From positions 65,348,001 through 65,412,000 of the forward strand of contig OX597823.1 in NCBI GenBank assembly GCA_951406725.2: 64,000 nt of DNA, written 5' to 3'. Shown in pieces: positions 1,782 to 63,103 of the stretch. The stretch's first letter is position 1, and each line of letters begins with the position of its first letter. The notes beneath the pieces are model-generated. The model was not told where the DNA came from, ran no database searches, and saw nothing but the letters and a program-made list of their open reading frames with translations. A program made the translations under genes and the position numbers. Source of the stretch: Octopus vulgaris (lineage: Eukaryota).

Positions 1782-3367
1782 CAGTGGCGGCCAAAATGTT
1801 CAGAACGGCATTGTTTTCGTCAGAAAAGTAGGTATAAGTTTTTATCAAAAAGTTGTTTTATATTCTATAATTTTCACAGACAATAAATACAATATTATTT
1901 GTTATTGCCTGAGATTTTGGTGTAATTTGAGAGGATAATACAAAAGTTATGTATGATTTAGTGATTTACTGCAAAACCCATGGCGGCCAAAATGATCAGA
2001 ATGGTTGCTTTTACTCCGTGTTTTAGTATATTTAACCGGCGAACTCTAATGTTTTGAATTTGTTTACGTGATGGTTCGTTTACTAAACATTAGTAAGAAT
2101 ATTTGCAGCGTACTTTGTTAATATAATGCCACTTACTCCGTTACCAATTCGTCAGCAGATTATTATGCTTCGAAGGAAGGATAATTTAAGTATTGTATCT
2201 ATTGCAAAGATTGTTAACAAGTCAAAAAGTGTTGTACACGGTATAATTAAGGTCTACGATGATTGTGGTTCGTGTGAAGCAAGAAAGTTTACAGGTAGGC
2301 CAAGAAAAACGACCAAGAGAGAAGATCGTGCTATGGTAAAGTTGGTTAAAGAGGACAGATTTAAAACTGCTGCTGCTGTTTCTCGGAAAATGAGCATTGT
2401 ATTGAAGAAAACTTTATCTCGAAAAACTGTGTCTCGTCGTTTAGTTGAACATGACCTACAAGCAAGAGCACCTGCAGTGAAACCACTGATCAGCTCCAAG
2501 AATAAAAAGTGTCGTCTTACCTTTGTAACCAAACATGTGTTGTGGTCTCAAGAAAAATGGCAAACGGTGCATTTCAGTGATGAATCTAAGTTTATGTTAT
2601 TTGGCTCAGATGGGAAAAGTAGGTGAAAAATTGTCGCCTAAATGCCTTAAGACTAGTGTTAAATTCGGTGGAGGAAGTGTCATGGTTTGGGGGATGATAT
2701 CTGGGGATGGTGTGGGCCCTTTGGTGTGGTTACATGGAAAGGTAAATGCAGGAGTTTATAAACAACTTGTAAAAGATCGTATCTTGCCTGTGCTGAGAAA
2801 TTCAACTAAGCGACCACCCATATTCATGCAGGACAATGCCCCATGTCACAAGGCTAAGGTGGTCATGAACTTCCTTATGGCTGAAAAGGTTATTGTTATA
2901 GATTGGCCTGCTCAAAGCCCAGATCTCAATCCTATTGAAAATGTATGGAATATTCTAGGAGAACGTTCGAAAGCCAGAAATCCTAAAACAACTGAGCAAC
3001 TATGGAATGCCCTTCAGGAAGAATGGAATAAGATCACCCAGCAAGACATTGAAAATTTAATTTCCTCATGCAGTCAAAGATGTCAGAGTATGATTGAAGC
3101 TAAAGGGCTTCACACTAAATATTAAATAATTCCAGTCATTTTTGATTATTTTGTTATTTTTCAACCGTTCTGATCATTTTGGCCGCCAATCACTAAATCA
3201 TACATAACTTTTGTATTATCCTCTCAAATTACACCAAAATCTGAGACAATAACAATTAGTATTGTATTTATTGTCTGTGAAAATAGAATATAAAACTACT
3301 TTGATAAAAACTTATATCTACTTTTCTGACGAAAACAATGCCGTTCTGAACATCTTGGCCGCAACTG
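1782..3367 (+). mobile_element. Full-length Tc1-family DNA transposon, IR-DR type
   Basis: TA target on both sides (1780-81, 3368-69). ~200-bp TIRs begin CAGTGGCGGCCAAAATGTTCAGAACGG and end CCGTTCTGAACATCTTGGCCGCAACTG. Inner direct repeats at ~1982 and ~3165-3187. Confidence 0.95.
2126..3125 (+). pseudogene. Tc1 transposase (DD34E) with a single frameshift near 2620
   Basis: ORF 2126-2626 has paired-like HTH, GRPRKT and FSDESKF. ORF 2535-3125 has GGGSVMVWG, FMQDNAPCH and WPAQSPDLNPIE, with 34 residues between the second D and E. Confidence 0.93.
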
Positions 3368-6316: not shown

Positions 6317-6460
6317 TTCCGAGTTCAAATTCAGCCGAGGTTGACTTTACTTTTCATCCATTCGGAGTCGATAAAATATGTACCGGTTGAGCACAGGGGG
6401 TCGATGTACTCGACCTAGCACCTCCCCCGATGTTTCAGACCTTGCACCAAAATTTTAAAC
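6317..6460 (+). mobile_element. SINE, 5'-truncated
   Basis: GAGTTCAAATTCAGCCGAGGTTGACTTTACTTTTCATCCATTCGGAGTCGATAAAAT core plus tail TTTCAGACCTTGCACC. Confidence 0.7.
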
Positions 6461-6469
6461 TAATATTAA

Positions 6470-7248
6470 TGATAACCATTTGCATGCGATCGGAAAACCA
6501 AAATACTCGACTAATGGGTACAACATGCATTGAATGAAAATCAAAAAATGTGCAAATATGAAATTTGCTTGTGGCTTCTTCCCCGTAACCAGATCGATCT
6601 ATTTCTCGAATGTACTGCAACTTATGATAAAAAGTGGATTCTGTACAATAATAGAAACCTTTCTTCGCGGTGGTTGCACCGAAAACCTTCCCTAAATCCA
6701 AGCTCTTCAAAAAGAAGGCTATGGTGACTGTCTGGTGGTTTACTTTTGGACTCATCCTCTCTAACTTCTTAAAACCCGGAAAAACCATTACTGCAGAAAG
6801 ATATTGCCCTGAAATTTCCAAAATGAACGAAAAACTGCTACTCCTCCGTCCCAGACTGGTCAACAGAAGAGGGCCAATCAATCTTCATGACAATACACGA
6901 CTACAAGTTTCACTAATGATGCTCAAGAATTTGAGGGAACTCGGCTATGCAGTTCTTCCCCACCCAACTTATTCTCCAGCCCTCTCACTTACCTGCTTAC
7001 TAACTTTTCAAGCACCTTGATGGTTTCCTGCGAGAGGAGTTCAAACCGATGGTGAAAGTGCGTTGAAAGAGTTCATCAGGTCTAGAACTCTAGATTTTTA
7101 TGTTACTGCAATAAAAAAAAAACTTGTAACCCGTTGGCAAAATTGCATTGATTCTATGATATTTCGATGAATAAAATTTCCGCATTGTTGAAATATATTG
7201 CGATGAATTTCAAGCTTCAAAATGTCACTTAATTCTTACTCAGCCTGA

Positions 7249-36920: not shown

Positions 36921-38013
36921 TTAGATTGTCAAGAAAGTTCTTGCGGGTTTTAACCTTTAAATTCAGATGCACATATCTCGGCTCAAACAAAACTTTATTA
37001 ATCGAAATAAACACCACCAGAATCAACACACTTTTGCCAACGCGAAACAAGTTTATTTATGCCAGTAGCATAAAAATCCTGTGTTCTGGTAGACATGAAG
37101 TCGATGAAGGCGTGTTTGGCATCGTCTTGGTTTTTGAAGCATTTCTCACGCAGGGAGTTGTTGAGATACTTGGAAAATTGGTAAACGATAGGTGAGATGT
37201 CTGATGAGTATGGCGGATGAGGCAGTATTTCGTAGCCCAATTCGCTCACCTTCTGCAGGGTCAGTTGTGCGATGTGCGGCCAAGCATTGTCGTGGAGAAG
37301 AATTGGGCCTTTTCTATTGACCAATGCTGGGTGTTGTCGGAGTTTCTTATGCATTTCATCCATTTGCTGACAGTACTTCTCCGTCGTAATGGTTTCCGTC
37401 GAGGAACGGGTAGTTCTTGTTGCGTAAAAGAAGGGAAGACGGCAATTGTTTTTGTTTGGTTGCCGTCTAAGTCATGCGGCACCCATTTCTCAAGTATTTT
37501 TGTTTTTCCAATCTCTTTCAAGTAGTTGGAAATTGTCGTGTACGTTACGTCTAATTCAGAAGCAAACTCTCGAACAATTGTGTGTGGATTAGCTTCGACT
37601 AAGGCTCTTAGTTGATCGTTGTCAACATCCGATGGCCGACCACTACGCTTATCATCTTCAAGACTCTCGTCACCGCTACGGAATTTATTGAGCCACCATT
37701 GTGCTGTACGTTCATTAGCGGTTCCTGGGCGAAATGTATCGTTGATATCGCAAGGTGTTTCAGCAGCTTTTCAGCCTAGCTTGAACTGGAATAACAAAAT
37801 TGTGCGAATTTGCTTTTTCTTCATGCTGAATTCAACGTTTCGAAAAAATGGCCTAATTTTTTCAAAAGGTAAAAGAATACCATGATTAGATAGAGCGAGA
37901 AACGAGCTTTAAAATGATATATAAATTTAAAGTAATTTAACGACAATTAATTTGAAAATACAACATATAAAACCAAAATTAAAAATTCCGCAAGAACTTT
38001 CTTGACATCCTAA
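36921..38013 (-). mobile_element. Mariner transposon with both TIRs, internally deleted
   Basis: TA-flanked TIRs TTAGATTGTCAAGAAAGTTCTTGCGG / CCGCAAGAACTTTCTTGACATCCTAA. Confidence 0.93.
36998..37824 (-). pseudogene. Mariner transposase pseudogene
   Basis: MKKKQIRTILLFQFKLG*..WLNKFRSGDESLEDDKRSGRPS..KWVPHDL.. then LLHDNAWPH and HPPYSSDISP. Premature stop, frameshift and loss of the first catalytic-D region. Confidence 0.9.
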
Positions 38014-38611
38014 TATTTATTTTGATAAAACGTTGAACCCTCAATATACGAAACGCGTGTCTAATTGTTCGTGTTCATTACATATGATTGAGTGGCTGAC
38101 TTTTATGTGTAATGAGTACGTATAATAATTAAATTATCTTATGCCATGATGTACCTGGACTGGAAGTAATAATTCATAGCTAGGGATATAGCCTGTGATT
38201 CTCGTCTTCTGGACTGTTTTTTAAAATTTTGTTACGAACTCGGAAACGACAGAAGACAAACTTGACATTGGTGGTATTAGAACGCAAAGCATACAGACTC
38301 AAACGGATACTGTAAGGCATATCAGGCATGTCAATTCACCGTCCATTGTTGTATATCACACTGATACTTAATTTTTTACTCATTTTAACAAGGCGAAAAC
38401 CCATAGTAACAAGTGAAGATGTTCATTTTTAAGTGAAAAGGAACGTCTATAATCCAGCATTTTACTGTTCTTAACACTACATGCGGATTCCCTCACAGGC
38501 TTACTCACCTTGCTCAATGCTTAAATTAATATGAATTTCAGTTTGAAAAGCCCTGTTGCAGTCAAAGGAAAAATATAAAGTCATTTTATATTTCTATTAA
38601 TATGACATAGA

Positions 38612-38727
38612 TGCAGGAGTGGATGTGAGGTAAGAAGCTAGCTTCCCAACCACATGGCTCGAACAAGTGTCTTCTACAATACCCTCGGGCCAACCAAAAC
38701 CTTGTGAGTGGATTTGGTAGATGGGCA
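38612..38727 (+). mobile_element. SINE head (OR/OK-type) feeding into the minisatellite
   Basis: GCAGGAGTGGATGTGAGGTAAGAAGCTAGCTTCCCAACCACATGG..CAAGTGTCTTCTAC, compare 47113. Confidence 0.75.
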
Positions 38728-39132
38728 CCTCGGGCCAACCAAAGCCTTGTAAGTGGATTTGGTAGATGGGCACCTCGAGCCAACCAAAGCCTTGTGAGTG
38801 GATTTGGTAGATGGGCACCTCGAGCCAACCAAAGCCTTGTGAGTGGATTTGGTAGATGGACACCTCGGGCCAACCAAAGCCTTGTAAGTGGATTTGGTAG
38901 ATGGGCACCTCGGGCCAAACAAAGCCTTGTGAGTGGATTTGGTAGATGGGCACCTCGAGCCAACCAAAGCCTTGTGAGTGGATTTGGTAGATGGACACCT
39001 CGGGCCAACCAAAGCCTTGTAAGTGGATTTGGTAGATGGGCACCTCGGGCCAAACAAAGCCTTGTGAGTGGATTTGGTAGATGGGCACCTCGGGCCGACC
39101 AAAGCCTTGTAAGTATATTTGGTAGATGGGCA
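38683..39132 (+). repeat. 45-bp minisatellite x10 derived from SINE body
   Basis: Unit CCTCGGGCCAACCAAAGCCTTGTGAGTGGATTTGGTAGATGGGCA starts at 38683, 38728 ... 39088. Confidence 0.97.
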
Positions 39133-41741
39133 CTGAGAGGAATATATTGATTATATTGAACCAAATATTTCACTGTTACATTATTTTTGTTCATCTCAGA
39201 ACGATGAAAGACTAACTTCTCCTCGGCATTATTTGAACGAGCAACGTATCTTTTCCGACGCACTAGCGATTATTCCATCCACCTCTACTTTTCAAGATGA
39301 TTTTGGCAATAACAATAAACAAGTGATAGAACGATTGACAGAATCAATAGTGTTGGAAATGCATAATTTGTTGCGCTGTTTAGTTACATCAAATTATGTA
39401 TTAAGTTGTAATCTTGCTAGAGCTAACTTTTCCTTTTCATACTTTAATCCCACATCTTCTACATAATTGATCAACTAAGTACCACTAATGTGCTTGAGTA
39501 GTTTACAGCAACCTATTGCAACCCCTTATAGAGAACAGCCTTGTATGAATGTAAGAAATCAATATTAGTAGCCATATGACATGCTGTGCAGAATTAATAT
39601 ATTCGTTCTTTCGGCGTATAATGATATATACGCTTACTGGCTTGCTCCCAAGACAACGTCAACAATCTTTCGCGAAAAAAAGGGAAAATAGTAATGAAAT
39701 ATTTCACGACAGAATATATCATGTTATGTGTAAAGCCGTACAAATTAGATAGCAGAATTTACACATGTAATTTGTCAGGTTGTGTAAGCCTTACTACGCT
39801 AAAAAAGTAATGTGGCATCTGCAGGAATAATTAATCTTCCTGGTTGGAATATTTCCTTATGTTTAGTTAATACGCGTGATTTGACAGTCGCACATGCTGT
39901 TATTTGTTATCATTACTACTGCAGCTGTTGTTGATGTCGATTTTGTTGTTTCTGTTGTCATTGATGATGATATTTCCGAAGCTGTTGCTGCCATTTTATA
40001 GTTAATTCTGACTGAGCTTAATTATCGTTGCTGATACAATTCAGTTTATAAATGCTATTACGTGGATGTTACCGTTGCTGGCATTTTGTTTTGCTGTTAT
40101 TATTATAATTTTTAAACTCTTTACTGGGGTTTGAATGGCAGAATTTATGACGCTTATTTTCTTTGTCAAGCCCTCCACCACCACCGACATGATTTGCGGG
40201 AAAAAGAGAAAAGGTTATCTTCAATTTAGAGACGTAGTCTGGATGCTTTAATCAGAGGGAGCTTCACCTAAAGTTACCAAATCGTGGTGATGCTAAACTA
40301 TGCCAAAGAATAAGTCTTCGACTAAAGAATTGAAACTTAACAGAGCCGGAACGGCATTTTCCCTGATTCTCTTAGTAACAATCGGGTAATCTATCTCATT
40401 AACCACTAAAGGTATACATAACTTCGATATGATTGGAAACCGACGTGCATAAAACCAGACCAAACACTGCAGGCTATTTATTTTTTATTGATATTTCTGC
40501 TGTTTTGTTACTAAACGTCGCAGTTATTGGTTTTGTCACTGAGGATGCTCCTGCTGGTCTTATTATTTTCTTATTTTTATCATCGCTGTGGTTCTTGTCA
40601 TTATTTTGTTTCAAGTCAGCTCTGATCGAACATCTGTTCGATGATGAAAGATGTTCTACAACTGACCAATTAACCAGTTTATTTTATATTAGGTATAGCA
40701 TGTGTAGGGAAACATGCGCTCTAGGTTGCTACCGTTGTTGATGATCCTATTTTTGTCTGTTAATATTACTGTTTTTGCTTTATTTTTCTAATAATCCTCA
40801 CTCCACACATCAAATTTGATAATTGAAAGCTTCTAACATACACCAGTCGCACTAAATCAACATTCATCGGTTATGTGGCAGTCTTGTCGGCTATAGTGAG
40901 AAACTCTAGATGTGTGTGCTAAGCGTCATTTAATCAGAAATCAGGATAGTTAGTATCGTTAAAGACTGAATAATCATCGTTGTATTTCTAAGAAGGCGTG
41001 ACCATGTTTGCTTGGTTCTCTTTGCCAAGTATGCTAGCACTGACTTTATTCAGTTTTCTAATGTTATTAATCAGCTTAATCTAATGGTTAGTGTGTTGAA
41101 CTAACATTCATGGTCATGCTTTTGCATTCTGAACGGCGGTGCCTTATTTATTTAAGCAAGGAATTTCTTTTCATTTTACTCCAATTTAAACAGTTTAAAA
41201 TGAATACCAGCCATATCTTGCCCTAGCTGTCACATTCATGTGTAAGGTAGTCGGGCCTAATGTTTAAGGTTAGCACTAGATTTCCGGTTGTCTCTGCTTC
41301 CTTGAGAAATATGGACGAAAACAGAGCAAAAGGCGAATAGATAAAATCAAAAACATGAAGTGAGACAAATATGCAAACAATGAAGAGAAAAGGGAGGTAA
41401 CAACTCTAAAAGAGGAAGCCAAACTAAAAGGAAAGGCAGCTATGACTTAGTTGATAAGAAATTATGTGTTGATATTCTATGAAAACAAGCTAACCGTTTA
41501 TAAATACGGTCTAGTAACTTGTATACAAATCTGTATAGGAATCTTATAACCTGTATGTAATTTCAGTAATCAATATGAGTATTCAGTATTTACAACATTG
41601 TGGTCTCTGCAATAACGTCTATTGGTAAGAGATTACCTCAATGTCAACATCTTCATTTTATGGTTGCTCTCTCTCTCTCTCTCCCTTCTCTCTCTCGAAA
41701 AATTGAATGCACGGAAAATGGAATACACAGGAAACGTTATT

Positions 41742-57644: not shown

Positions 57645-57768
57645 GACACATTTCCTGTGTCCTTATATTTGCGAAGGGAAGGCAAGCACCTCCACCAGCT
57701 AGGATTCACACCTGAAGACATGCATGTTTCTGGGTCTTACCTGTCATCAGTCCAGGATAGCAAGTCCT
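57645..57768 (-). repeat. Hammerhead-bearing repeat, partial copy 1
   Basis: Near-identical to 59078-59201. Confidence 0.9.
57711..57756 (-). ncRNA. Type I hammerhead ribozyme with intact core
   Basis: rc: CCTGGA CTGATGA CAGGTAAGACCCA GAAA CATGCATG TC TTCAGG. Stem I CCUGGA/UUCAGG, stem II GGU/ACC, palindromic stem III ACAUGCAUGU, GUC cleavage triplet. Confidence 0.8.
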
Positions 57769-58377: not shown

Positions 58378-58557
58378 AATATATATACGAGAAAGAAGCA
58401 ACAAGAATGGATTCTTGTTGCTTCTTTCTCGTTTATAATCACCCCACATTACTGTATGGATAACACCATATGGTTTTTCTGGTGCATCTAAGTTAAGTAC
58501 CACATTCAAGTAAATTCATTGGAAGTTACTTGAATCTTAATTGCTATAAATATATAT

Positions 58558-58699: not shown

Positions 58700-58877
58700 T
58701 GTAAAATAATATGAAATAATTATTCAATAGTCAAGATAAAACTCTGAGTTTCGGATGCCGAGGTGCAAATCCACAACACCATCTCTTCGATTAGAAGAGA
58801 TGGTGTTGTGAATTTCCACTCGGGATCCGAAACTCAGAGTTTTATCTTGGCTATTGAATAATTGTCACATATTATTT

Positions 58878-58920: not shown

Positions 58921-58921
<1 letters not shown>

Positions 58922-59201
58922 TTAGAAATATTGTAGTTTCTAAATGTCTCAAAGAGACATGAGCGGTGGTGGAGCGATAGAGTGGTTGTATACTGTCAAC
59001 ATAACGTGACAGTCCTGTAAGGGAATTACACCACCGCAATTTAGCCCTAGGAAGCATCGACGCTTCCTGACGGCTTTGACACATTTCCTGTGTCCTTATA
59101 TTTGCGAAGGGAACGCAAGCACCTCCACCAGCTAGGATTCACACCTGAAGACATGCATGTTTCTGGGTCTTACCTGTCACCAGTCCAGGATAGCAAGTCC
59201 T
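58921..59201 (-). repeat. Hammerhead-bearing repeat, full ~280-bp copy (retrozyme or PLE pLTR-like)
   Basis: Homologous to 57645-57768, 62719-62892 (direct) and 62891-63103 (inverted). Hammerhead at 59144-59189 has a CTGGTGA core variant. Confidence 0.85.
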
Positions 59202-60833
59202 TTTCTCTTTATTATAGGCACAATGGCCTGACTGAAGAGGGGACGTAACAATACAATACAGGACATGGTGTACATATAACAAAAATACAGAAAGGATGAT
59301 ATGAAATGAAATATTAACAATGAATTAATGAAATGGCTTACGAGCCCACCAAAGCTCGCAGTTTCATTTACAATTACAGTTATACTATCTGGGGTGTTCG
59401 TCAGTAATGTAAACGAGTAATTCATCTTGCTCTATAACGCCGGGCAAACTGTCTTATCGAACGTAATGCGCTGTGGTTACCGCTGTATCTGAAAACAAAT
59501 TTATTAATTTATTTATCGTCTCTTTTTCCACTATTGCAGCCTTTATTTTGTTATTGTATATCCTCGGATTCTTTTTCACTCTCGTTAGATTTTTCGTTAT
59601 TGCTAATTTTTTCTCAAGTTCTTTATCTTTTGTGTACAACATTACAGCTTTGAGATTCTTTCCTTTCGGTCTTCCTCCTTCCTTGTATGTTTTCAGACAT
59701 TCTTCCACTTTTGTTGACAATTTTCCCGCTTCCTCCCACATTGTAAATTCACTCACTTTAGTTGCTGTATTTCTCCCTTCGTGCGTTCGATCCTCTGTCT
59801 TGTCAGCATTCTTCTTTTTAGTTTTTTTTTTTGGTCTTTGGGTGGTGATTCCACCCGTGTTCGCTTTCTATCCTCTTTTTCTTCCGTTCTTTACTTTTCT
59901 TTCTCCTTCACTAACTCGTCGTCACTTTCCATATTATCTCCTAAATCCTCTGACAAATCTCTTAGTGCTTCCTCCAGTGTCATCTTCTTCTCTTGTATTT
60001 CTCCTTCAGGACACACATCTTTCATGTGCCTCTTCTCTTACATTTATAACACACTGGAGGTCTCCCCTCCACCACGACTCTGAGTCATGTCTCGTCGGGG
60101 TACACCATCTCCTCCGGGATGTTATGCAAATCTGGCATGGTTATGTGGACTAAGGCTTGCACCACATAACCCCACCAGTTTATTTCATTCGACTTTTCCA
60201 CTTTAATTATGTTCACGTTCTCTTTGCAGTTGTAGATTATTGCAGCTACTATTCTTTCGGTATCAAGTTCCGGTGGGAATTTGCTTATTCGTATCATCAC
60301 TGCTCTTTTCCACAATAACTAGGAAATAAAACCCATTTTTCCGATCTCAACACTGTCGTTGCGTTCCTTTTTGCTCCGTCTTCATTTTCGAATCGCACGT
60401 CTATCGTAGCATATTTTCTACCTCTATTGTAGAAGGTAGTTCTTCCTTTTGTTTCCTGTAGACATTTTTCAATCTCTTCCAACTTTGCTACTTCTATTCT
60501 CTTTGAGACCACATTGCATGTTCTGTATGTTATGATTTTGTTCTCCGCTTCTTTCACTTCGTCTTCAGGTGGTGTAACCCTCAGACAGTCACCTTCCTTC
60601 TTGAAGCTGTCGTAGTATTTCCTCAAATTTTCCTTCTCGACAATTATTTCTTACAACTATAATTCGTTTGCAGCCAGGCCCTTGCCTGCTGCTTCTGCAT
60701 AAGTTTGGGCTTGCATACGCAACAAAGAATTCAACAATTCAACACGACGCAACAGTTTTCAACAACAATAATCAGCAAAATCCAACTCACAACCGCAAAT
60801 CCGACAGACCGATACAAACACTACCGTGAGCCC
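59200..60833 (-). mobile_element. ORF1/Gag-only non-autonomous retroelement, copy A
   Basis: Colinear with 60976-62655: GT-rich 5' UTR, single ORF, ~185-nt 3' UTR ending TCAGGCCATTGTGCCTATAATAAAGAGAAAA. Confidence 0.8.
59385..60716 (-). pseudogene. Gag/ORF1-like protein with CCHC zinc knuckle (copy A, disrupted)
   Basis: MQAQTYAEAAGKG..KYATIDVRF..LFPSYCG..VVEGRPPVCYKCKREAHERCV..K/E-rich region..DEHPR*. Several stops and frameshifts. Confidence 0.75.
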
Positions 60834-60975
60834 TTTCTCTTTATTATAGGCACAATGGCCTGACTGAAGAGGGATCATAACAATACAATACAGGACATGG
60901 GGTACATATAACAAAAATCCAACTCAAAAACGCAAATCCGACAAACCGACACAAAAAACGCGAGCCCTGCTAGCT
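60834..60975 (-). mobile_element. Internally deleted mini-copy of the ORF1-only element
   Basis: ~80 bp of the 3' end fused at AACAAAAAT to ~60 bp of the 5' end (..GAGCCCTGCTAGCTG). Confidence 0.85.
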
Positions 60976-62655
60976 GAAATCTTTATTATAGGCACAATGG
61001 CCCGAAAAAAGAGGGGACATAAGGATACAATACAGGACATGGGTTACATATAACAAAAATACAGAAAGGATGATATGAAATGAAATATAAATAATGAATT
61101 AAATGAAATGGCCTACGAGCCCCCCAAAGCTCGCAGTTTCATTTACAATTACAGTTATACTATCTGGGGTGTTCGTCCGCAATGTAAACGAGTAATTCAT
61201 CCTGTTCTATAACGCCGGGCAAACTATCATATCGAACGTAGTATGCTATGCACACAGCTGTATTTGAAAACAAATTTATTAATTTATTTACCGTCTCTTT
61301 ATCCACAATTGCAGCCTTTATTTGGTTATCGTATATCCTCGGGTTCAATTTCACTCTCGTTAGATTTTTCATTATCGCTAATTTTTTCTCAATTTCTTCA
61401 TCCTTTTCGTACAACATTACAGCTTTGAGATTTCTTACTTTTGGTCTTCCTCCTTCCTTGTATGTTTTCAGACATTCTTCCACTTTTTGTTGACCATTTT
61501 TTCGTTTCCTCCCACGTTGAAAATTCACTCACTTTAGTTGCTGTGTCTCTCCCTTCGTGTGTTCGACCCTCTGTCTCGTCGGCAGACTTCTTTTTAGTTT
61601 CTTTCTTTTTTTGGTCTTTGGGTGGTGATTCCACCCGTGTTCGCTTTCTATCACCTTTGTCTTCTGTTCTTTACTTTTCTTTCTCCTTCACTAACTCGTC
61701 GCCATTTTCCACATTATCTGTTGTCACAATTTCCTCTTCCGCTTGCAATTCCACATTCTCCTTTCCTAACTCCTCTGTCAAAGCCTCCATTCCTTCCTCC
61801 AGTGTTATCGTCTTCTCTTGTATTTCTCTTTGAGGACACACATCATTCATGTGCTCTCTGCTCTTACATTTATAACACACTGGAGGTCTCCCCTCCACCA
61901 CGACTCTCAGTCGTGTCTCGTCGTGGAACACCGGGATGTTATACAAATCTGGCATGGCTATGTGGACTGAAGCTTGCACCGCATAACACCATCAGTTTAT
62001 TTCCTTCGACCCCTCCACCCCAAGTATGTCAAGGCTCTCCTTGCAGTTGTAGATCATTGCAGCCACCATTCTTTCGGCATCAATCTCCGGTGGGACCCTG
62101 CCCATTCGCATCCTCACTGCTCCCTCTCCACAGTAACTAGGAAGCAAAACCCATCTTTCCGATCTCAACACCGTCGCTGCGCTCCTCTTCGCCCCGTTCT
62201 CATTCTCAAAACGAACGTCCACCGCAGCGTACTTTCTACCTCCATTGTAGAAGGTAGCTCCTCCTCCAATTTCCTGTAGACACTTCTCAGCCTCCTCCAC
62301 CTGTGCTACTTCGATTCTCCTTGAGACCACATTCCATGTTTTGCATGTCATGATTCTCCTCTCCGCCTCCTTCACCTCATCCTCAGGTGGTGCAAACCCA
62401 AAAAGTCACCCTCTCTTTTAAAGCTGTCGCAGTACTTCCTCAAACCTTCCCTCTCGACAATTACTTCCTCCATCTGCAACTCGTTCGCAGCCAGGCCCCT
62501 GCCCGCTGCTCCCGCACAAGCTTGGGCTTGCATACCCAACAAAAAATCCAACAATTCAACACGTCGCAACAGCTCTCGACAACAACAATGAACAAATCCA
62601 AGTCAAAACCGCAAAACCGACAAACCGACACAAAAACGTGAGCCCTGCTAGCTGG
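60976..62655 (-). mobile_element. ORF1/Gag-only non-autonomous retroelement, copy B
   Basis: 5' end CAGCTAGCAGGGCTCACG and 3' end GGCCATTGTGCCTATAATAAAGA. Colinear with copy A. Confidence 0.8.
61160..62533 (-). pseudogene. Gag/ORF1-like protein with CCHC zinc knuckle (copy B, disrupted, A>G hypermutated 5' part)
   Basis: CYKCKSREHMNDVC fits CX2CX4HX4C. ORF pieces 62372-62569, 61992-62375, 61671-61979, 61398-61634 and 61160-61528 join into ~455 codons. Confidence 0.8.
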
Positions 62656-62718
62656 GATACCTGTCTAGCCTTCGCAAATATATATATTTACAGTGAAATC
62701 TATTCACTGGTCACCGTA

Positions 62719-63103
62719 ATTAGAAATATTGAATTTGTAAATGTCTCAAAGAGACATGAGCGGTGGTGGAACGATAGAGTGGTAGTATACTGTCAACATA
62801 ACGTGACAGTTCCGTAAGAAAATTACACCACCCTAAGAAAGCATCGATGCTTCCTGTCGGCTTTGACACATTTCCTGTGTCCTTATATTTGCTATCCTGT
62901 ATTGTTGACGGGTAAGACCCAGAAACATTCATGTCTTCAGGTGTGAATCCTATTTGGTGGGGGCGCTTGCCTCCCCTTCGCAAATATAAGGACACAGGAT
63001 ATGTGTCAAAGCCGACTGGAAGCGTCGATGCTTCCTCGGGCTAAATTGCGGTGGTGTAATTCCCTTACAGGACTGTCACGTTATGTTGACAGTATACAAC
63101 CAC
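62719..63103. repeat. Direct partial plus inverted copy of the hammerhead-bearing repeat
   Basis: 62719-62892 matches 58921-59105. 62891-63103 is the reverse complement of ~58982-59194, with a degenerate plus-strand hammerhead at 62896-62941 (TTGTTGA CGGGTAAGACCCA GAAA CATTCATG TC TTCAGG). Confidence 0.88.

Follow-up and report, generated by a model that had tools for sequence, protein, structure and literature searches.

Organization of the locus

The DNA described here is a window of 64,000 nucleotides from Octopus vulgaris, which sits on contig C10 of the 2.8-Gb genome. It contains two copies of a retroelement, here called A and B, which are arranged in tandem on the minus strand and are 83% alike (Table 1). 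The element has a single frame of ~450-490 codons with a CCHC knuckle (zf-CCHC, E=0.0037, below the curated cut-off); look-alikes of this frame in the Atlas are RRM/CCHC and ZCCHC3-like proteins, which we regard as leads only. In copy B, the frame extends from an ATG at 62533 to a stop at 61160 and is disrupted by a stop and by two deletions, one of 1 bp near 62396 and one of 9 bp. No second frame (ORF2) was found in the element, whose tandem period is 1.8 kb, and a longer version with the same 3' end that codes for a reverse transcriptase was absent from the 1.5 kb examined at each of 13 further loci that were found through the 3' end.

Table 1. Features around copies A and B, in window coordinates
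Feature	Position	Strand	Evidence
Repeat X, solitary fragment with intact type I hammerhead pattern at 57711-57756	57645..57768	-	
Repeat X, high-copy, retrozyme/Penelope pseudo-LTR-like, downstream of A	58921..59200	-	
Copy A, unedited, of a subfamily other than B's; ORF from ATG 60716 to stop 59385, broken	59206..60824	-	
Mini-copy (121 bases), internally deleted, 5' start fused to 3' end, between B and A	60838..60958	-	
3' copy of the target-site duplication of B	60959..60976	-	
Copy B, 1.6-kb ORF1-only retroelement	60980..62636	-	alignment, target-site duplication
Hyper-mutated tract of copy B, with 66 of 205 ancestral As changed to G on the sense strand	62011..62573	-	alignment, polarisation, context
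5' copy of the target-site duplication of B, 17/18 bases identical to the 3' copy	62637..62654	-	
Repeat X, direct, 5'-truncated, upstream of B; by eye no A>G excess	62655..62892	-	
Repeat X, inverted, with microsatellite end and degenerate hammerhead-like motif; outside the edited tract	62889..63103	+	

Several features mark these copies as products of retrotransposition. A target-site duplication is found not only at copy B but also at another family copy, L211 (13 bases); across the family, the 3' end is fixed and 5' truncation varies from copy to copy. A poly(A) tail is lacking: copy B and the other copies end in AATAAAGA, which is followed by target sequence. Judged by its sequence, the element would work like a non-autonomous element of the HAL1 type. 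With HAL1 (half-L1; PMC5753468), it shares one ORF1-like frame with a CCHC knuckle, the lack of a reverse transcriptase and the target-site duplication; it differs in having no poly(A), an apparent preference for hammerhead repeats and TATA-proximal sites, and head-to-tail arrays, and homology to L1 is not demonstrated.

The sequence flanking the two copies belongs to a high-copy repeat, repeat X. In its copy downstream of A, the bases 59144-59189 resemble a hammerhead, with one change in the core. The hammerhead core was found by a pattern scan and has a complementary stem I of varying sequence, pairing having been a requirement of the scan; a comparison with the hammerhead family in Rfam gave no match for the motif in repeat X. 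Copy B, the mini-copy and copy A appear to have inserted one after another at a single hammerhead-repeat target. More generally, insertions of the element recur just upstream of a hammerhead, and they do so in no fewer than three hammerhead-repeat families (62637-62654 and many other loci), which looks like sequence-specific targeting of retrozymes. On sequence grounds, the target repeats resemble retrozymes or Penelope pseudo-LTRs. Like the non-LTR retrozymes and pseudo-LTRs described in PMC7229834 and bioRxiv 10.64898/2026.07.22.740005, repeat X is ~300-370 bases long and high-copy, shows a hammerhead pattern of type I, and is found beside microsatellites in both direct and 5'-inverted form; unlike them, it is here not itself edited but serves as target and flank for the insertion of a protein-coding element.

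Some further observations concern the element and the window. Head-to-tail arrays with a period of ~1.8 kb and many open frames of 300-490 codons lie at G000:C4:27053715-27065837, C4:70043443-70051589, C1:194340993-194347707 and C19:589529-593660, and this array subfamily looks recently active. At four loci (L211:1960-2301, L212:1960-2301, L169:1960-2301 and L043:5400-5900), the insertion lies ~25-45 bases downstream of a TATA box, with CCAAT boxes upstream in three of the four, suggesting targeting of transcription start sites. The bases right upstream of copy L083 (G000:C10 near 40.599 Mb) resemble the 5' end of U1 snRNA, and this flank is possibly a template-switch chimera. Elsewhere in the window, broken frames at 2087-3125, 6435-7020 and 36998-37770 have motifs that make them look like Tc1/mariner transposases, a tandem repeat with a 45/90-base unit at 38586-39269 is open in several frames, and two near-perfect DNA hairpins flanked by TA microsatellites (58739-58842 and 58390-58433) are possibly miniature inverted-repeat elements.

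One-directional changes in copy B

A preliminary description of this DNA had counted, on the plus strand, ~70 T>C, ~4 C>T and ~26 other differences between the 5' parts of the two copies. Global alignment of 60181-60716 with 61998-62533 gives 72, 4 and 29 over 535 aligned bases, and the 240-bp control reported alongside, with 8 T>C versus 4 C>T, was recovered with the same counts; over the entire 3' part (966 bases), there are 23 T>C versus 16 C>T. On the sense strand of the element, these T>C differences read as A>G. When As are polarised on the majority states of the family, 65 of 209 are changed in the tract of B, as against 9/328 in its 3' part (Fisher p=8e-21). The tract had been placed at 61998-62533; it spans the bases from ~62011 to ~62573 and reaches ~40 bases beyond the upper of these limits, into the 5' untranslated part. 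These limits are the first and last changed site, carried over via the alignment of B with A.

The direction of the changes follows from a consensus of the family copies, a check that the preliminary description had proposed. The family has A at these sites, and with 34 other genomic copies as reference, 62 of the 73 A/G differences are derived in B; at eight it is copy A that has changed, from G to A, and three are ambiguous. The description's reading of the differences as changes in B therefore holds for most but not all of them; in the protein change TYAEAAGK>ACAGAAGR, for instance, the E is derived in copy A, the other copies having TYAGAAGK.

Could B simply be a member of an ordinary G-rich subfamily, a product of GC-biased conversion, or the ancestral state from which copy A is derived? 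The eight G>A changes in copy A would fit the last of these readings, and the youngest subfamilies are indeed somewhat G-richer (A 0.32 versus 0.37). However, the polarisation refutes copy A as the derived G>A copy. Copy A has relatives that are 93% alike, whereas B has none above 83% (40 of 124 candidates scored), and in B the changes are one-directional and strongly biased in context, other changes are not raised and the tract ends are sharp, which rules out the ordinary GC-richer subfamily. We consider this whole group of explanations exceedingly improbable.

Recurrence across the family

Copy B is not alone. Three further copies, L032 (C18), L035 (C2) and L036 (C16), each have 50-85 A>G changes in the same region. 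A protein search with an unedited copy returned 150 matches, and altogether 261 extracts were reduced to 154 distinct sequences, identical young copies being merged. A nearest-neighbour screen could be applied to the 153 copies with enough neighbours, 141 of which had at least 300 cleanly aligned bases. Seven of these 141 have a sense A>G excess at p<1e-14, namely B, L032, L035, L036, L155 (C19), L211 (C7, 29.257 Mb) and L212 (C4, 97.909 Mb); L051 and L229 also pass the Bonferroni correction, and L198 and L190 are suggestive. An antisense signal was sought in the same 141 copies, and no T>C hyper-mutated copy was found (best T>C p=0.10). Five other candidates (L160, L195, L222, L016 and L054) were dropped as alignment noise in flanks or divergent parts.

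The seven strong copies have 67-174 A>G against 0-16 G>A changes, so they bear no sense-strand G>A signature of the APOBEC type, and T>C, A>C and T>G show no rise in the edited copies. The signal is cleanest in L211 and L212, where 168 of 177 changes relative to the nearest relative L169, and 177 of 184 relative to L172, respectively, are A>G. Seven of the 150 matches to the unedited query are hyper-edited; since this search is biased against edited copies and the set of 141 includes loci from edited queries, neither gives an unbiased rate.

The edited copies lie in separate subfamilies, which argues for independent events. In a tree with purines merged, they are placed in different clades; B and L032 fall into one poorly resolved group, yet they are not sisters. 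Of other derived changes, L035 shares 41 with the unedited L030 and L036 shares 10 with L023, while L211 and L212 have 87 and 91 reciprocal purine changes. Together with the edits that are private to each of the first four edited copies (13/54, 7/40, 19/77 and 8/38), the tree positions rule out a single edited master copy. Sites edited in common exceed the expectation from trinucleotide context (153 pairs where 128+/-5.5 are expected, and 12 sites instead of 4 that are edited in each of these four copies), an excess that needs either a wider context or a shared partner.

We also searched for daughters of edited copies, with five of them as queries (all but L032 and L155). Among 40 scored candidates for each, there was none, the best other matches being 83, 79, 87, 87 and 87% alike; edited copies hence appear to be dead ends. 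On the internal branches, a search for edited founders gave 301 A>G versus 293 G>A changes, 37 of the 301 after G, a crude measure that is confounded by selection. In the youngest lineage, the L166-L212 clade, the 5' 700 bases have an A content of 0.31-0.33 and a G content of 0.31-0.32, as compared to ~0.37 and ~0.27 in the window's subfamily, and light editing of master copies is one possible cause.

Sequence context of the changed As

The preliminary description had noted that changed As rarely follow a G, which is borne out by the alignment of B with A: in sense orientation, G is the 5' neighbour of 5 of 72 changed As, compared to 53 of 144 that are unchanged. Among the As of three young copies, the fraction changed varies with both neighbours: by 5' base, it is 0.65 for T, 0.53 for A, 0.25 for C and 0.06 for G, and by 3' base, 0.45 for G, 0.36 for C, 0.31 for T and 0.27 for A. 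The bias is not caused by selection, as it persists at synonymous sites (7/112 after G versus 175/320 after A or T, p=5e-22) and as synonymous and non-synonymous As are changed at similar rates (0.55 and 0.50).

This pattern has the neighbour preferences of an ADAR, with 5' U or A before C and C before G, and a weaker 3' effect in which G is favoured; the comparison with the ADAR motif that had been proposed thus comes out as a match (5' U>A>C>>G and 3' G). In humans, both ADAR1 and ADAR2 favour U or A as the 5' neighbour and disfavour C or G, the 5' base being dominant, and ADAR2 prefers a 3' G (PMC3113232). Depletion of 5' G is common across metazoans, and hyper-editing in octopus is exceptionally high; in the same source, invertebrate hyper-editing sites as a group are enriched, in raw terms, for a 3' A (PMC5625713), unlike the per-A rate found here, which peaks before G. 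The host genome has four loci that match PF02137 and so, at the level of this domain, codes for ADAR-family deaminases; ADAR1, ADAR2, ADAT and ADAD are not told apart by this match.

The edited sites in other DNA samples

Clusters of same-type mismatches are known as a systematic sequencing error, there from G to A (PMC2873906), which would speak for a sequencing or assembly artefact. Yet the Gs of B recur in contigs of four other DNA studies (X2, X3, X4 and X6), which bear two organism labels; the preliminary description had proposed a confirmation of this kind on raw DNA reads. Since these contigs cover the tract at single-copy depth in four independent studies, an assembly error is excluded for B, the only one of the seven strong copies to which this check was applied. 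Furthermore, the changes track the strand of the element on both genomic strands. An artefact is refuted for B, and for the phenomenon as a whole we give it next to no credence.

The other samples also document the later history of B. Two contigs of 683 bases from other samples have 13 and 15 differences from B. None of the data sets listed as containing copy B is of RNA, which carries no information on expression. The 1-bp deletion near 62396 is missing from all four and consequently arose after the insertion of B. Of 18 checked allele differences between B and the other samples, eight toggle between C and T at sites where the family has T, which fits later decay of edited sites. Within 62013-62322, eight edited or editable sites vary between the assembly and the other samples in both directions; the original insertion therefore probably had more edits than any allele now present.

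Tract geometry and the proposed mechanism

Relative to the ATG, each of the seven strong tracts begins between -108 and +11 and stops between +476 and +1308, and none reaches the 3' end. Under uniform placement, the joint chance of seven such 5'-anchored starts is ~1e-5; most searches used 5' queries, but copies edited in the 3' half alone would still have been found. The weak tract of L051 is the sole internal one, and the 5' part of L229 did not align. Confinement of editing to the RRM region was considered and is ruled out by tracts that reach +1260 and +1310.

Within long double-stranded RNA, ADARs convert A to I in clusters and disfavour As that follow a G; reverse transcription turns the inosine into G. 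We consider it very probable, from the sequence evidence, that an ADAR edited the template RNA of B and that target-primed reverse transcription then put these edits into germline DNA. This is what the preliminary description had claimed overall, and the claim is supported, as each of the three findings it had named as refutations (a derived copy A, an ordinary subfamily, and Gs missing from DNA) was contradicted; the action of ADAR and the double-stranded RNA partner are what we infer.

As for the origin of the duplex, the ~5 kb around B, L032, L035 and L036 contain no inverted copy of the tract, head-to-head neighbours on C32 share just 63% identity, and in the 5' kilobase of an unedited copy, a search for a long intramolecular helix returned short helices only (z -2.8). 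A local fold-back is therefore rejected for the copies examined, and an antisense partner RNA is proposed. The sense transcript would pair with an antisense RNA that covers its 5' end and reaches inward over a variable distance, and ADAR would deaminate 26-45% of the As within this duplex. In a germ cell, a reverse transcriptase supplied in trans would then start at the unedited 3' end of this RNA and copy it at a nick in the target. The partner most likely starts inside the element and exits through its 5' end, an arrangement that we give about an even chance; alternatively, the unedited 3' part was protected by the retrotransposition complex. At L007/L118 (G000:C32 near 0.38 Mb), a family copy and a 63%-alike relative lie head to head with a hammerhead repeat between them, and such a pair from the same subfamily could supply antisense RNA.

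Two other mechanisms would leave similar scars. In the first, an error-prone polymerase of the eta/iota type made the second, sense strand from the 5' junction over a variable distance and placed G opposite template T. It accounts for the 5' anchoring of all seven tracts and for the sense-strand bias, and as polymerase eta has a WA motif, the preference for A or T at -1 would also be expected. Polymerases of this type, however, make mixed errors in short tracts, whereas A>G makes up 95-96% of all differences of the youngest copies, and A>T, A>C and indels are nearly absent. Moreover, 53-65% of the As after A or T are changed over 1.3 kb, far above known polymerase eta rates, and the 3' G preference and the graded order of C before G at -1 fit ADAR. 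We regard this mechanism as unlikely.

In the second, ADAR deaminated the sense DNA strand in a hybrid with antisense RNA, during or after integration, and the template RNA was never edited. ADARs are able to act on the DNA strand of such hybrids in vitro, identical context and strand would be expected, and the C/T toggling in other samples (8/18) would agree with it; but ordinary C>T decay predicts such toggling as well, and hypoxanthine in DNA gets repaired. Editing of hybrids is also weak relative to that of double-stranded RNA. Furthermore, the tracts respect the ends of the element, and by eye the flanking repeat copies have no A>G excess. This second mechanism appears even less probable than the polymerase. 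The phenomenon itself is real, germline and recurrent, and ADAR editing before reverse transcription explains it best.

Known systems and significance

Some of the closest precedents are viral. ADAR-linked A-to-G hyper-editing has been described in the avian retroviruses RAV-1 and ALV (Felder 1994; Hajjar and Linial 1995) and, in culture, in HTLV-2/STLV-3 (cited in PMC8586724). As in the element described here, the A-to-G changes of these retro-elements are clustered on the sense strand and became visible after reverse transcription; they are, however, exogenous viruses studied mostly in culture, while the element here is endogenous, non-viral and ORF1-only, and its edits are fixed in the germline in at least seven copies with up to 170 sites (PMC8586724). 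Likewise, APOBEC 'DNA-edited' LTR retroelements are known from vertebrate genomes; none was found in 19 invertebrates, in a screen filtered for G-to-A (Knisbacher and Levanon, PMC4866542). Both are deaminase scars in single genomic copies, strand-biased, context-dependent and found pairwise, but those of APOBEC are G>A, arise by cDNA editing and lie in LTR elements, whereas here they are A>G, presumably on an RNA substrate, in a non-LTR element of an invertebrate host (PMC4866542). The tracts also resemble ADAR hyper-editing of repeats in transcriptomes in density, clustering and 5' G depletion, although those edits exist in RNA only, and ours are in DNA and without a nearby inverted partner (Porath et al., PMC5625713). 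ADAR-edited endogenous retroelements fixed in a genome were not found in the literature searched, which yielded exogenous retroviruses only; as subscription papers, mostly, and supplements lay outside the search, their absence is not established. A 2016 review called the roles of ADAR in Alu subfamily evolution and in mutational suppression of retrotransposition undetermined (PMC4982230).

With regard to function, the preliminary description had suggested an anti-transposon activity or a route to heritable variation. Neither the former nor a usefulness of the latter is demonstrated: the five edited copies used as queries had no detectable daughter. As edited copies are apparently dead ends, the effect is probably a by-product of double-stranded RNA surveillance that mildly restricts the element.

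The tracts are direct evidence, at the level of the genome, that RNA editing can lead to inherited mutation, and they are countable and datable. They record the past level of germline ADAR editing, its neighbour rule and the extent of double-stranded RNA. For the annotation of such genomes, it follows that identity-based repeat libraries will misplace or misdate edited copies. At the protein level, A>G changes cannot make stop codons; L211 and L212 retain their ATG, their CCHC knuckle and open frames (492 and 455 codons) although 97/462 and 81/336 aligned residues are changed (21-24%), and copies of this type are a one-step source of new protein sequence. More tentatively, and as a proposal that we hold to be plausible but rather less than even in likelihood, ADAR hyper-editing may be a routine mutagen of germline retroelements in this animal: it would edit ~1 in 20 family copies from the 5' end inward, recoding a fifth of the protein at once and introducing no stops, and whole subfamilies may have become G-richer through lighter editing of their master copies.
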